Assembly (NCBI RefSeq): GCF_003334815.1
Contig: NZ_QOWO01000050.1
Strand: one strand, 5' to 3'
DNA: 23,190 bases
Source of the DNA: Escherichia coli
GTDB lineage: Bacteria > Pseudomonadota > Gammaproteobacteria > Enterobacterales > Enterobacteriaceae
The position numbers and the translations under genes are program-made. How positions within the stretch are numbered: the first letter of the stretch is position 1; the number at the start of each line of letters is the position of its first letter. The notes under the pieces were generated by a model that saw only the letters and a program-made list of their open reading frames with translations, ran no database searches and was not told the DNA's origin. Positions 1-7,219 of this stretch are shown in pieces.

Positions 1-1
1 G

Positions 2-898
2 TGGCTTGCGCAGTGCGGGCTGACGGTGGAGCAACTGGCCAGACAGGTGGAGCCGGAATACACACCGGCGCGAAAAGCTCATCTTTATCACTGCGACCAC
101 CGGGGACTGCCGCTGGCGCTTATCAGCGAAGACGGCAATACGGCGTGGAGCGCGGAATATGATGAATGGGGCAACCAGCTTAATGAGGAGAACCCGCATC
201 ATGTGTATCAGCCGTACCGTCTGCCAGGGCAGCAGCATGATGAGGAATCAGGGCTGTACTATAACCGTCACCGGTACTACGATCCGTTGCAGGGGCGGTA
301 TATTACTCAGGACCCGATGGGGTTGAAAGGGGGATGGAATTTATATCAGTATCCTTTAAATCCACTACAACAAATTGACCCTATGGGATTATTGCAGACT
401 TGGGATGATGCCAGATCTGGAGCATGTACGGGGGGAGTTTGTGGTGTTCTTTCACGTATAATAGGACCAAGTAAATTTGATAGTACTGCAGATGCTGCGT
501 TAGATGCTTTGAAAGAAACGCAGAATAGATCTCTATGTAATGATATGGAATACTCTGGTATTGTCTGTAAAGATACTAATGGAAAATATTTTGCATCTAA
601 GGCAGAAACTGATAATTTAAGAAAGGAGTCATATCCTCTGAAAAGAAAATGTCCCACAGGTACAGATAGAGTTGCTGCTTATCATACTCACGGTGCAGAT
701 AGTCATGGCGATTATGTTGATGAATTTTTTTCAAGTAGCGATAAAAATCTTGTAAGAAGTAAAGATAATAATCTTGAAGCATTTTATCTCGCAACACCTG
801 ATGGACGATTTGAGGCGCTTAATAATAAAGGAGAATATATTTTTATCAGAAATAGTGTCCCGGGATTGAGTTCAGTATGCATACCGTATCATGATTAA
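2..898 (+). CDS. rhsD: Rhs-family polymorphic toxin, C-terminal ~299 codons (5'-partial; gene begins upstream of window). Conserved Rhs core end followed by a variable AT-rich C-terminal toxin domain
   Basis: Frame is open from position 2 with no stop before the track ORF at 26. Translation contains the Rhs core-terminal signature YDxxGR...[13 protein letters not shown] (PxxxxDPxGL) at about 300-390. Base composition drops sharply to AT-rich immediately after that motif, as expected for a swapped toxin tip. Gene symbol is from recalled context (rhsD-ybbC-ylbH-ybbD next to mnmH/allS). Confidence 0.85.
113..392 (+). repeat. Rhs core-terminal homology block, copy 1 (direct repeat with 1309-1588)
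   Basis: Nucleotide and protein similarity to 1309-1588 visible by eye, including a 33-nt identical block ccggtactacgatccgttgcaggggcggtatat at 271-303 and 1467-1499. Both copies end at the DPxGL motif. Confidence 0.8.
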
Positions 899-937
899 TT
901 TTAGTGCTTTTATTAGTGGGGCCTATAAGGAGATTCA

Positions 938-1306
938 ATGAAATATAGTTCAATATTTTCGATGCTTTCATTTTTTATACTATTTGCCTGTAATGAGACA
1001 GCTGTTTACGGTTCTGATGAAAACATTATTTTTATGAGGTATGTGGAAAAATTACATTTAGATAAATACTCTGTTAAAAATACGGTAAAAACTGAAACAA
1101 TGGCGATACAATTAGCTGAAATATATGTTAGGTATCGCTATGGCGAACGGATTGCAGAAGAAGAAAAACCATATTTAATTACGGAACTACCAGATAGTTG
1201 GGTTGTTGAGGGAGCAAAGTTACCTTATGAAGTTGCGGGTGGTGTATTTATTATAGAAATTAATAAGAAAAATGGATGTGTTTTGAATTTCCTACATAGT
1301 AAATAA
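938..1306 (+). CDS. ybbC: Small protein directly downstream of the Rhs toxin tip; putative cognate Rhs immunity protein with a hydrophobic N-terminus (possible signal peptide or lipoprotein)
   Basis: 122-aa ORF starting 40 nt after the rhs stop, AT-rich like the toxin tip. N-terminus [18 protein letters not shown] is signal-peptide-like with a Cys after the hydrophobic stretch. Position immediately 3' of an Rhs C-terminal tip is the canonical immunity-gene location. Confidence 0.75.
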
Positions 1307-2016
1307 TGCTGGCGCTGATGGATGCGGATGGAAACATTGCGTGGAGCGGGGAGTATGATGAGTGGGGCAACCAGCTGAATGAAGAGAACCCGCATCACCT
1401 GCACCAGCCGTACCGGCTGCCGGGGCAGCAGTATGATAAGGAGTCGGGGCTGTACTACAACCGGAACCGGTACTACGATCCGTTGCAGGGGCGGTATATC
1501 ACTCAGGACCCGATAGGGCTGGAGGGGGGATGGAGTCTGTATGCGTATCCGCTGAATCCGGTGAATGGTATTGATCCATTAGGGTTAAGTCCCGCAGATG
1601 TAGCGCTAATAAGAAGAAAAGATCAACTAAACCATCAAAGAGCATGGGATATATTATCTGATACTTATGAAGATATGAAGAGATTAAATTTAGGTGGGAC
1701 TGATCAATTTTTCCATTGTATGGCATTTTGTCGAGTGTCTAAATTAAATGACGCTGGTGTTAGCCGATCGGCGAAAGGGCTGGGTTATGAAAAAGAGATT
1801 AGAGATTACGGGTTAAATCTGTTCGGTATGTACGGCAGAAAAGTAAAGCTATCCCATTCTGAAATGATTGAAGATAATAAAAAAGACTTGGCTGTAAATG
1901 ACCATGGGTTGACATGTCCATCAACAACAGATTGCTCAGATAGATGTAGTGATTATATTAATCCAGAGCATAAAAAAACGATAAAGGCTTTACAAGATGC
2001 TGGCTATCTCAAGTAA
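1306..2016 (+). CDS. ylbH: Orphan Rhs C-terminal module: ~95 residues of Rhs core end (through DPLGL) fused to a different, AT-rich C-terminal toxin domain of unknown activity
   Basis: 236-aa ORF whose ATG overlaps the ybbC stop (TAATG). N-terminal third is homologous to the end of the upstream rhs core; the sequence after DPLGL (about 1590) is unrelated to the RhsD tip and AT-rich. No upstream Rhs repeat region is in frame, so it is a displaced tip rather than a full rhs gene. Confidence 0.8.
1309..1588 (+). repeat. Rhs core-terminal homology block, copy 2 (5' part of the orphan tip module)
   Basis: Same as copy 1. Encoded peptide [26 protein letters not shown]...[14 protein letters not shown] parallels [26 protein letters not shown]...[14 protein letters not shown] in the main rhs ORF. 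Confidence 0.8.
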
Positions 2017-2257
2017 TCTATCAAAGATGATAATATTTATTTTTGCTATTATAATCATTGTTGTTTTATGCGTAATTACTTATCTTTATTTATACAAAGA
2101 TGAATCTCTTGTAAGTAAACATTACATAAACTATATGGCAATACCAGAAAATGATGGAGTTTTTACATGGCTCCCAGATTTTTTTCCGCACGTAGCGGTG
2201 GATATATCAATATACACAAATGTAGAAGATGATTATTTTTTTCTTATTTTTCCCTAA
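1997..2257 (+). CDS. ybbD: Small predicted membrane protein downstream of the orphan Rhs tip; candidate immunity protein for the orphan toxin (start uncertain; an internal ATG at 2027 just after the ylbH stop is an alternative)
   Basis: 86-aa ORF, very AT-rich, with a strongly hydrophobic N-terminal segment [22 protein letters not shown]. Sits in the immunity-gene position relative to the orphan tip. Weak ribosome-binding sites for both candidate starts. Confidence 0.5.
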
Positions 2258-3000
2258 CAAATGATGATGGGGGTAGGTTTAAGAAAACATTGACAGTGAG
2301 GGCCAGGGAACAAGTGGCGAAAATCGTATCAAAGAATGATCCAGATACAAAAAAAGTGTGGTGTAAATATGGTAAGATACCAGGGCAAGGGGATGGTGTA
2401 AACCTTTTTTTGTTGGTGAAATTAATGTTACGCATTATTTTATAACAAATATTGGAGCTGGATTGCCTGATGCTTGTGCAGAGTAATTGCTTGAATTAAG
2501 AGTCTATCCCATATCGAAGTCGTCAACTTCGTAGTGAGGAAAAGTAAAATTCCTGACTGAGAAAAGACATGTCGGCTATTGTGTAAAGCCATATAGCTCA
2601 GACGATGAATATCTACTCGTATTCAGTTGTTTATTGAGGGTGAGTTCCGACCCTGAAACAACAAATAAAATGAACAGTCAGAGAGTTTACATAGAATTGC
2701 ACTGGTCTTTTACGATATCTGACATTGTGTAATACATATTCAGCCATGCATTAATTAAAATGTTACGTGTTTAATGTGAGTCCCTATCTGAAAATAAATA
2801 ATCCTTCCGGATTAAAATAAATTCTTGCCGGGAAAGAAAGAGGAAATAAACCATTAGCGGAAAACCAGCGGCACGCCAGGGTGACATGCCCCAGTACGGC
2901 GGCCCGATAGTCCAGGGTTCAGCGGGGGTACTGATAGTCGCGCCGACTGCATCGAGAACTCCATACAACTTTTTACGGAACGTCACCTGATAAAATTTGT

Positions 3001-3372
3001 TCAGTATCGTCTTTTGAGATTCTCAAGGTTATGGAGTAACCAGACAGAACGGACACCACTGTCGGAGATAAAAACCCCCTGTTTACGCAGCTCGTTGCTG
3101 GCCCGGTGCTGACCATGTGTCGGGAAAGCGACGGCGTAATCAACAACAGCCTGTTCAGTTGCCTCATCGGTACGGTTCTTAAGGTTAGGAGCGCGGCGAC
3201 TACGATTAATCTGCGCATCCACACCGCCTTCAGCGACCAGTTCGCGGTAACGATAAAACGTATCACGCGAAACGCCCATGATTTTACAGGCTTTTGATAC
3301 GTAGCTGAGTTCTTCAGCCAGATTGAGCAAACCGGCTTTGTGTTTGATGACGGGATTGGCAGTATGAAGCAT
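3001..3372 (-). pseudogene. ylbG: Truncated IS481-like transposase N-terminal (HTH) fragment; no integrase/DDE domain follows
   Basis: Minus-strand ORF with ATG at 3370-3372 preceded by AAGAGGTAA (the track's GTG at 3408 lies upstream of this). Translation MGVSRDTFYRYRELVAEGG...NRSRRAPNLKNRTDEATEQAVVDYAVAFPTHGQHRASNELRKQGVFISDSGVRSVW resembles the N-terminal HTH region of IS481/IS3-like transposases. The ORF stops after ~123 aa and downstream sequence is AT-rich without a recognisable catalytic domain. Confidence 0.55.
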
Positions 3373-3487
3373 GAGAGTTACCTCTTGTTTTGGATAAGGA
3401 TTCGACACTCATATCAAAACCGGTAACTCTCAACCTTTCAAGGCCATGTGTCAGATCAAGTCGCGACTAATACAAATACGTCCCTCA

Positions 3488-4597
<1,110 letters not shown>

Positions 4598-5806: not shown

Positions 5807-6289
5807 ATGAAACTTCAGGTATTACCGTTAAGTCAGGAAGCCTTTAGTGCTTATGGCGACGTAATCGAAACGCAGCAACGGGATTTTTTCCATATTAACA
5901 ATGGCCTGGTGGAGCGTTACCACGATTTGGCGCTGGTTGAGATTCTTGAGCAAGACCGTACGCTTATCAGCATTAACCGCGCGCAACCGGCGAATCTGCC
6001 GCTGACCATTCACGAACTCGAACGTCATCCGCTGGGTACTCAGGCCTTTATCCCGATGAAAGGTGAGGTGTTTGTGGTGGTCGTGGCGTTAGGTGACGAC
6101 AAACCAGACCTGTCAACGCTGCGGGCGTTTATCACCAACGGCGAACAGGGAGTGAATTACCATCGTAACGTCTGGCATCACCCACTTTTCGCCTGGCAGC
6201 GCGTCACCGATTTTCTGACCATCGATCGCGGCGGCAGTGACAACTGTGATGTTGAAAGTATTCCTGAACAGGAACTCTGTTTTGCGTGA
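5807..6289 (+). CDS. allA: Ureidoglycolate lyase (ureidoglycolate hydrolase family)
   Basis: 160-aa ORF; sequence and length match AllA; position between allS and allR. Confidence 0.9.
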
Positions 6290-6366: not shown

Positions 6367-7182
6367 ATGACGGAAGTTAGACGGCGCGGCAGGCCAGGAC
6401 AGGCGGAGCCTGTGGCACAGAAGGGCGCACAGGCGTTAGAGCGGGGAATTGCGATTCTGCAATATTTGGAAAAAAGTGGGGGAAGTTCGTCGGTTAGCGA
6501 TATTTCTCTCAATCTGGATTTGCCGCTCTCCACGACCTTTCGCTTGCTGAAGGTTTTACAGGCAGCGGATTTTGTCTATCAGGACAGTCAATTAGGCTGG
6601 TGGCATATAGGATTAGGTGTCTTTAACGTCGGTGCGGCGTACATCCATAACCGCGATGTCCTCTCCGTCGCCGGGCCGTTTATGCGCCGCCTGATGTTAC
6701 TTTCCGGCGAAACGGTCAATGTCGCGATCCGTAACGGCAATGAAGCGGTATTAATTGGTCAGTTAGAGTGTAAATCGATGGTCAGGATGTGTGCGCCACT
6801 GGGCAGTCGTCTGCCACTGCATGCTTCCGGTGCGGGCAAAGCGCTGCTTTATCCGCTGGCGGAAGAGGAGTTGATGAGCATCATTCTGCAAACCGGTTTG
6901 CAGCAGTTTACGCCAACTACGCTTGTGGATATGCCCACCTTGCTGAAGGACCTGGAACAAGCGCGTGAACTGGGCTATACCGTAGATAAAGAAGAGCATG
7001 TTGTAGGTCTGAATTGCATAGCTTCAGCAATTTACGATGATGTCGGTAGTGTTGTTGCCGCTATCTCCATCTCCGGGCCTTCATCAAGACTGACAGAAGA
7101 TCGTTTTGTCAGTCAGGGTGAGCTGGTCAGAGACACCGCCCGCGATATCAGCACGGCGTTGGGACTGAAAGCACATCCATAA
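6367..7182 (+). CDS. allR: IclR-family transcriptional repressor of the allantoin/glyoxylate regulon
   Basis: 271-aa ORF with an N-terminal HTH and C-terminal IclR effector domain; matches AllR length and context. Confidence 0.9.
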
Positions 7183-7194
7183 TGTCTGTCGCAT

Positions 7195-7219
7195 CCCGCT
7201 CTGCGGAGCGGGTTTTTTT
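7195..7219 (+). terminator. Rho-independent terminator downstream of allR
   Basis: GC-rich hairpin CCCGCTC-TGCG-GAGCGGG followed by a run of seven T, starting 13 nt after the allR stop. Confidence 0.7.

Follow-up and report, generated by a model that had tools for sequence, protein, structure and literature searches.

A probable displaced rhsD toxin tip of predicted serum-amyloid-A-like fold and its frameshifted partner gene ybbD at the K-12-type rhsD locus of Escherichia coli

A C-terminal displacement model has been described for rhs genes (Jackson et al. 2009, PMC2935791), and in Salmonella Typhimurium LT2 the fusion of rhs-main with rhs-CT-orphan (STM0291/STM0292) has been shown experimentally (Koskiniemi et al. 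2014, PMC3967940). The switching substrate in Salmonella measured 522 bp at 95% identity, and the switch needed a prior duplication for the main immunity gene to be retained (PMC3967940). The prok-SAA Lipocones are tips of polymorphic toxins with a His/Glu/Asp(Asn) pocket, predicted to cleave lipid head groups from the periplasmic side, and the immunity proteins of this family are all transmembrane proteins or lipoproteins (bioRxiv 10.1101/2025.01.14.632903). TelC, an LXG toxin of Streptococcus intermedius, belongs to the same superfamily as prok-SAA (bioRxiv 10.1101/2025.01.14.632903). The locus described below shares features with each of these systems, and it is best read, in our opinion, as an ordinary displaced toxin/immunity module.

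The window, by which we mean the whole stretch of 23,190 nucleotides of E. coli DNA that was analysed, opens within the final ~390 nt of the rhsD core. A search of complete E. coli genomes found its positions 1-3500 to be 100% identical to strain UMNF18, and at least 80% of the same 3500 positions were recovered in one piece from 1757 of 5426 genomes. The gene order in the identical record NZ_AGTD01000001 is ybbP, rhsD (4281 nt), ybbC, a partial RHS pseudogene, an ORF of 261 nt, an IS-type ylbG remnant, mnmH and allS. In that record the counterpart of ylbH is labelled "RHS repeat-associated core domain", as a pseudogene with missing N-terminus, and the 261-nt ORF is labelled "hypothetical protein". 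We refer to this succession, in which rhsD is followed by ybbC and then by the orphan, as the orphan layout. The locus is the K-12-type rhsD–ybbC–ylbH–ybbD arrangement, which is annotated in every K-12 record; the literature on ylbH/ybbD function consisted of genome-scale tables only, and a PADLOC scan of the orphan tip and intact YbbD returned no matches. The features are collected in Table 1. Base composition changes along the region: the core pieces have a GC content of 0.54-0.57, the two tips one of 0.37, and ybbC and ybbD one of 0.31-0.33.

Table 1. Features of the rhsD–ybbC–ylbH–ybbD region, in window coordinates
Feature	Position	Strand	Basis
rhsD core 3' end	1..391	+	RHS_core positions 1141-1261, E 2e-75; rhsD annotation in NZ_AGTD01000001
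Longest exact repeat identity, 34 nt	270..303	+	partner 1466-1499
Resident RhsD tip and stop codon	392..898	+	Pfam DUF4329, E 2.5e-37, domain at about 491-850
ybbC, resident-tip immunity gene (YbbC/YhhH, NTF2-fold immunity family)	938..1306	+	RefSeq annotation
ylbH core remnant	1306..1587	+	RHS_core 1169-1261, E 2e-50; TIGR03696
Orphan tip, 142 aa, SAA-like (prok-SAA / Lipocone), predicted	1588..2016	+	profiles and predicted structure; frame intact
ybbD pseudogene, candidate cognate immunity gene	1997..2486	+	NF011298 match; alignment to intact 163-aa copies
ybbD frameshift site 1	2236..2242	+	T7 here, T8 in intact copies
ybbD frameshift site 2	2405..2411	+	T7 here, T8 in intact copies

The original prediction described an orphan Rhs tip module whose reading frame retains only about the last 95 residues of the Rhs core, through DPLGL, and the measured layout agrees with it. 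The module is a C-terminal one lying downstream of rhsD and ybbC, and the match of its ORF (1306-2016, 236 aa) to NCBIfam RHS_core is restricted to the last 93 of the 1261 model positions. The N-terminal and delivery part is absent and the core 3' end is kept through the motif PxxxxDPxGL. The last 142 residues are unrelated to the DUF4329 tip of RhsD, as had been stated, and resemble serum amyloid A (SAA) instead. The ATG of the orphan is placed exactly at the boundary of the homology and overlaps the TAA stop codon of ybbC (TAATG, 1304-1308). The direct repeat that had been read by eye was also recovered by alignment, at 112-391 and 1308-1587, with 224 of 280 nucleotides identical (80%) and a spacing of 1196, so that the similarity is not far lower than had been read; the perfect identity given as 33 nt is an exact run of 34 nt, the longest between the copies. 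A repeat scan found no other direct repeat longer than 29 nt anywhere in the 23-kb window. The two copies share the codon register, encode 75 identical residues out of 93 and both finish at the Rhs cleavage motif DPxGL (DPMGL at 377-391 and DPLGL at 1573-1587), directly after which the similarity collapses.

The activity of the tip had been called unrecognisable from sequence; its family, at least, can be recognised. The tip by itself gave a weak match to Pfam SAA (E 1.3e-3 to 3.6e-4), and searches of the PDB with a single sequence or with six sequences reached SAA only at E 0.3-0.6. A profile built from six close relatives and run against 1.84 billion representative proteins yielded 121 relatives, in most of which the matched stretch is C-terminal and many of which are members of the Rhs family according to precomputed Pfam RHS matches and AFDB descriptions. 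In an alignment of 45 sequences, residues D39, H43, C44, E70, D100, G107 and C120 (tip numbering) are invariant and C48, D73, D96, N104 and C116 are conserved in at least 90%. The profile of these 45 sequences matched PDB structures of serum amyloid A at E 1.6e-18, and 33 of the 45 relatives match Pfam SAA individually at E<=1e-3, the best of them at 1.7e-26. The link to SAA is solid only with the 45-sequence profile. Structure prediction followed the same pattern: the AF2 model from the 45-sequence alignment reached pLDDT 94.5 and pTM 0.86, and the one from the 6-sequence alignment (pLDDT 57) was unusable. The former contains a four-helix core (helices 2-33, 39-51, 56-78 and 90-108) and short extra helices at 116-123 and 129-137. 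Foldseek placed SAA1 (human) and SAA3 (mouse) structures in all of its top 7 PDB positions (probability 1.00, target-normalised TM 0.69-0.75), and its AFDB50 matches comprised Rhs tips, MuF-domain toxins and animal SAAs. A search of the residues after DPLGL has thus led to a predicted SAA-like fold.

The pocket residues of prok-SAA have their counterparts in H43 of helix 2, E70 of helix 3 and D100 of helix 4, and on these profiles and the model the tip is assigned to the prok-SAA family of the Lipocone superfamily. It resembles the described members in the predicted four-helix cone, the His/Glu/Asp(Asn) set, the C-terminal toxin-tip position and the membrane-anchored partner, and differs from them in several respects. 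At the position of the sNxxGR motif, a feature of helix 4 in the SAA-Wnt clade, the tip reads VNDHGL, in which N104 and G107 are kept and the R is replaced by L; the tip carries a Cys-rich C-terminal extension (C110, C116, C120) together with the two short helices; and the putative partner YbbD falls outside the immunity folds named in the Lipocone paper, with 2 cysteines in its soluble part and not 4. TelC is comparable in that its action, on lipid II, is confined to the outside of the cytoplasm and its immunity protein, TipC, is located in the membrane or periplasm, but it represents another clade of the superfamily and is delivered by a T7SS; it was absent from the fold searches with the window tip. 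A further comparison is with BteO, a T6SS effector of Bacteroides fragilis (PDB 9UU0; PMC12541434), which has a similar fold and binds the periplasmic domain of OmpA.

A small membrane-protein gene following the tip had been proposed as its candidate immunity gene. An ORF with an N-terminal hydrophobic helix does follow (1997-2257, 86 aa), but it covers only positions 1-85 of the 163 in the YbbD model NF011298, at 177 bits against a cut-off of 326, and the remainder of ybbD is present out of frame, continuing through window position 2486. Alignment to six genomes in which intact YbbD has 163 aa (ETEC6335, APEC37, 2015C-3905, 88-3493, GPEC403 and KD0845) shows two T8 tracts that have each been shortened by one T in the window. 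The gene in the window is a pseudogene with two frameshifts and the 86-aa ORF is its 5' half, and the "ybbD" ORF of K-12-type strains is better read in the same way, as what two frameshifts have left of a gene for a 163-aa membrane protein. Both T deletions recur in O157:H7, the first of them only is present in MMC-J-0105, and 07_3636 carries a different change (+T). Among 28 genomes taken as a spread sample, tip plus ybbD matched over 902, 903, 904 or 905 nt, which indicates that tract length varies widely, although homopolymer assembly errors may contribute, and suggests that most copies of ybbD carry at least one tract change.

Intact YbbD consists of a Lys-flanked N-terminal hydrophobic helix followed by a domain of ~125 aa, a layout that fits the membrane-anchored immunity proteins described as partners of prok-SAA. 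A homologue of YbbD (34% identity, E 6e-18) was found directly 3' of a related tip in another orphan array (L013). That tip is only about 54% identical to the tip of the window, and the conserved pairing with a diverged tip provides indirect support for the candidate role of YbbD in immunity. A Pfam scan of intact YbbD gave nothing significant, with a Pfam copy that apparently did not contain PF26610; the homologue has a precomputed Pfam match to PF26610 YbbD_head.

Recombination between the repeat copies had been predicted to graft the orphan tip onto full-length Rhs, and such a product exists: a junction query counted about 966 genomes, out of 5426 complete ones, in which the ylbH tip continues the RhsD core. 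In O157:H7 the same locus, from ybbP to mnmH, falls short of that in the window by exactly 1196 bp and contains an intact Rhs gene of 4197 nt (1398 aa) that ends in the window-type tip and is followed by ybbD. The orphan layout was found in roughly 1757-1839 genomes, and tip plus ybbD in 2738-2863, about the sum of the two layouts. Full-length Rhs genes with a window-type tip occur together with intact 163-aa YbbD in ETEC6335, APEC37, 88-3493 and GPEC403. The tip on the full-length Rhs of strains 88-3493, 2015C-3905 and 07_3636 is identical to that of the window; in 88-3493 a fused tip that is 100% identical to the orphan is paired with intact YbbD. ETEC6335, APEC37 and GPEC403 have a second tip allele, with 10 amino-acid changes, in fused form; SC492 has it as an orphan, and KD0845 combines the orphan layout with intact 163-aa YbbD.

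The distribution of variation between the two layouts bears on the direction of the event. Across the junction of ybbC with the orphan, 271 nt are 100% identical in nearly all of 1839 carriers, and 1612 K-12-type loci share 99% identity or more over 3.5 kb, which suggests a single origin of the orphan layout. Pairs of fused genes show 91-100% identity across their junction. Compared with the K-12-type core, the fused cores reach 93-97%, and two tip alleles with a divergence of about 4% occur in these genes, most of which have intact immunity. Because the orphan junction is nearly invariant and the fused forms are diverse, the orphan is favoured as the displaced and derived state, and the most likely reading of this comparison of sequences is that it is a relic of displacement. 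The direction cannot be read from the junction by itself, since a single crossover that inserts is the exact reverse of one that deletes. At the beginning of the orphan copy, within its first ~35 nt, 12 sites (window 121-142) differ from the main-type bases present in all 9 full-length genes sampled, a pattern that fits donor DNA at a crossover scar. Several of the main-type and orphan-type sites that were considered for orienting the event segregate among full-length alleles, and were set aside as shared polymorphisms rather than donor markers.

Other observations point away from displacement. In the fused genes, the position at which main-type gives way to orphan-type sequence differs from lineage to lineage, with mixed sites over window 143-187, changes at 188-201 and at 227-235, and an internal patch at 262-269. 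Those of 88-3493 and 07_3636 are main-type up to window 187 and orphan-type from 202, the exact reciprocal of the window, and correspond to the expected product of a deletion in the window with a crossover at 188-201. The ybbD frameshifts that O157:H7 has in common with the K-12 type also fit decay as an orphan followed by re-fusion. Furthermore, a +G frameshift is common to the orphan copy of KD0845 and the full-length genes of 2015C-3905 and 07_3636. Crossovers do occur inside the repeat block, and exchange from strain to strain explains them equally as well as intrachromosomal deletion. The derivation of APEC37 by deletion from an SC492-like parent, with K-12 layout and ETEC-type tip, was rejected: the orphan core of SC492 is of the K-12-orphan type up to DPLGL, and APEC37 follows ETEC6335 from window 236.

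Taken as a whole, the module of the window is probably a displaced former tip/immunity pair with an envelope-acting SAA-like tip, silent and partly decayed at this locus. The pair ylbH/ybbD would have been the main C-terminal toxin/immunity pair of the rhsD gene until recombination at the conserved core end brought in a cassette, made up of a core 3' end, the DUF4329 tip and ybbC, that pushed ylbH/ybbD downstream, and the 280-bp repeat would be the scar of this displacement. The composition of the region resembles the C-terminal displacement model (Jackson et al. 2009), with GC-rich core joined to AT-rich tip and with the former tip, still attached to some core, lying 3' of the newly acquired tip and immunity gene; there is no difference in kind, and the population counts of both states are what is added here.

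The orphan tip would be a soluble four-helix SAA-like domain. When carried on full-length Rhs, it would be encapsulated, cleaved after DPLGL and delivered to a neighbouring cell, where it may act on the cell envelope from the periplasmic side. A candidate action is the cleavage of lipid-linked head groups, for instance of lipid II or undecaprenyl-PP intermediates, in the manner of TelC and in line with the prediction for the superfamily; another would be binding of the periplasmic domain of OmpA, as by BteO. Human SAA reportedly binds OmpA of E. coli. The single-pass membrane protein YbbD, with its predicted periplasmic domain, would neutralise the tip in the periplasm. In the window the module would be silent and partly decayed, as the intact tip ORF lacks a delivery domain and the two single-nucleotide deletions have inactivated ybbD. 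Recombination of the RecA type in the repeat could re-fuse the tip in frame with deletion of 1196 bp, which is expected to be rare, and such a re-fusion in the window would give a toxin without intact immunity.

A reading closer to the original prediction, in which the locus was said to be set up for tip switching, makes the orphan a reserve weapon: recombination of 112-391 with 1308-1587 would regularly graft the tip onto RhsD and change the toxin/immunity type, and many of the fused genomes would be revertants. We regard this as unlikely. The locus is similar to that of Salmonella LT2, where homologous recombination in a shared core block joins an orphan tip to a delivery part and where main/orphan fusion has an experimental basis (PMC3967940), but the block in the window spans 280 bp at 80% and contains one exact stretch of 34 nt, compared to 522 bp at 95%, and offers no near-identity substrate. 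The tips of the two loci also belong to different families, the orphan immunity gene of the window is frameshifted, and the present locus is known from sequence. Recombination by RecA requires an uninterrupted match of about 25-30 nt, and with active mismatch repair its efficiency drops sharply as the sequences diverge. Given the length, the 80% identity and the one 34-nt block, switching in the window is expected to be orders of magnitude less efficient than in Salmonella.

The remaining observations divide similarly. The repeat is in frame and the architecture of the switch product, shorter by exactly 1196 bp, does exist in nature, so that this part of the prediction stands; a switch in the window, however, would arm the cell without protection owing to the broken ybbD, and would delete ybbC as well. 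The reading frame of the tip is undamaged, and full-length genes carry identical copies of it. The orphan junction is monomorphic, which counts against regular switching. The scattered positions of the change in fused lineages, and the two frameshifts of the orphan form in ybbD of O157, are compatible with repeated re-fusion; the mosaic junctions are, on the other hand, equally explained by allelic exchange between strains, and the test of a deletion parent with APEC37 and SC492 failed. A toxin acting only from the periplasm need not kill a re-fused producer, and O157:H7 apparently tolerates the fused tip with a broken ybbD, but the sibling cells of a re-fused strain would be left unprotected. 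The module of the window is a toxin cassette of an ordinary, known kind rather than a poised switch.

Retention of the module for the sake of orphan immunity only, with ybbD as a shield against neighbours firing the same tip and the toxin fragment as a passenger, appears improbable to us. The threat would be a common one, to judge from the genomes with the tip on full-length Rhs, and intact YbbD does persist in some genomes of the orphan layout, such as KD0845; orphan immunity genes are, moreover, a recognised theme (PMC10539506). Such a shield is nevertheless difficult to reconcile with the two frameshifts in the ybbD of the window and with the match spans of the 28-genome sample, which suggest that alteration of at least one tract affects most copies, and the protection afforded by YbbD is itself putative.

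Expression of the 236-aa orphan by itself, through coupling to ybbC at TAATG or from an internal promoter, and its operation in a toxin-antitoxin-like manner inside the producer, as reported for Salmonella Rhs orphans, is very improbable: the placement of the ATG against the ybbC stop, the precedent for internal expression of Rhs-CT orphans (PMC7043789) and the RpoD holoenzyme sites listed at ylbH>ybbD and ybbD>ylbI of K-12 in a genomic SELEX table (PMC3946193) are outweighed by a start at 1306 that no Shine-Dalgarno sequence precedes, by a promoter scan giving 11 sites against 10.2 expected from shuffled sequence, by a tip family predicted to act outside the cytoplasm combined with the absence of a signal peptide, and by the frameshifts of the putative antitoxin. 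A conserved counterpart of the internal promoter P2 of Salmonella was ruled out, the homologous region being only 71% identical and its -10 element lacking the final T, and independent expression of the orphan looks unlikely.

Returning to the displaced pair, a stronger version of its proposed function is conceivable but in our judgement doubtful, namely that the C-terminal domain of YlbH is an active envelope toxin of SAA fold, delivered on Rhs to the periplasm and directed at Und-PP precursors or the peptidoglycan-binding domain of OmpA, and that YbbD represents a new family of membrane-anchored immunity proteins whose expression is toggled by slippage in the T8 tracts. To our knowledge, no enzymatic assay has been reported for the serum-amyloid-A/Lipocone toxin family. 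If the tip were such a toxin, the activity from which that of vertebrate SAA descends could be studied conveniently in K-12; no organism is more tractable than the one that carries this presumed serum-amyloid-A/Lipocone tip. Both orphan Rhs modules and examples of their re-fusion are in the literature already, and to that subject the locus adds little. The occurrence of the orphan layout in about one third and of the fused arrangement in about one sixth of complete E. coli genomes amounts to a natural experiment, and these counts could be used to estimate how often displacement and re-fusion occur.

A single +G frameshift lying just 5' of DPLGL was found to be common to the orphan copy of strain KD0845 and to the full-length Rhs genes of two other strains, 2015C-3905 and 07_3636 (see table), and the 151-aa ORF that it creates carries the accession WP_001013164.1 in all three genomes. 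Strain SC492 retains the K-12 layout (rhsD-ybbC-orphan) with the second, ETEC-type allele of the orphan tip, which carries 10 amino-acid differences. As its core remnant is of the K-12-orphan type as far as DPLGL and is there joined to an ETEC-type tip, the SC492 orphan implies a crossover at the core/tip boundary. Nord122 has a full-length Rhs whose ylbH-type tip is interrupted by an IS1 element, and the ybbD gene downstream of it is intact.

Coordinates of features in the window and in the compared loci of other genomes (L handles)
Feature	Sequence	Position	Strand	Window equivalent
+G frameshift, orphan copy	KD0845 (L011)	about 2560-2590		~1524
+G frameshift, full-length Rhs	2015C-3905 (L006), 07_3636 (L004)	about 6066-6092		~1524
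ybbD frameshifts	window	2236-2242, 2405-2411
Gene remnant between ybbD and mnmH	window	2853-2948	minus
Gene remnant between ybbD and mnmH	window	3001-3408	minus
IS1-interrupted tip	Nord122 (L008)	6445-7200
K-12 layout, ETEC-type orphan tip	SC492 (L012)	2309-3251
Multi-cassette orphan array	L013	1832-6183
RHS element core protein match	GmM066	3794901-3795013		1308-1420

Each of the two ybbD frameshifts in the window represents the loss of one T from a T8 tract. Among genomes, the match to the tip plus ybbD spans 902, 903, 904 or 905 nt, and this spread suggests either frequent change in T-tract length by slippage or homopolymer errors in some of the assemblies.

At the 5' boundary of the orphan, its ORF start overlaps the ybbC stop in the motif TAATG (window 1304-1308), and the ATG falls exactly on the first base of core homology; translational coupling from ybbC to the orphan is therefore formally possible. 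A Shine-Dalgarno sequence is absent from the region of this start. In GmM066, a full-length "RHS element core protein" gene gives an 87% match beginning at the very first base of the orphan copy, and the 5' segment specific to the orphan may have come from the rhs lineage of this gene. The L013 array contains P0032 (380 aa), a relative of the tip; its cassettes are, in order, an Ntox16-like fragment, a DUF6714 protein, the SAA-like orphan paired with a YbbD_head protein, and TseH with Imm58.

Over window positions 915-1244, ybbC shows 100% identity to a gene annotated as an "NTF2 fold immunity protein" on the 86-kb plasmid NZ_AP027905.1; the resident immunity gene is thus plasmid-borne as well. 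The two remnants that separate ybbD from mnmH are a partial "hypothetical protein" of 96 nt and ylbG, which retains a helix-turn-helix fragment of an IS-type transposase; each is conserved at ~99% or more in all arrangements sampled.
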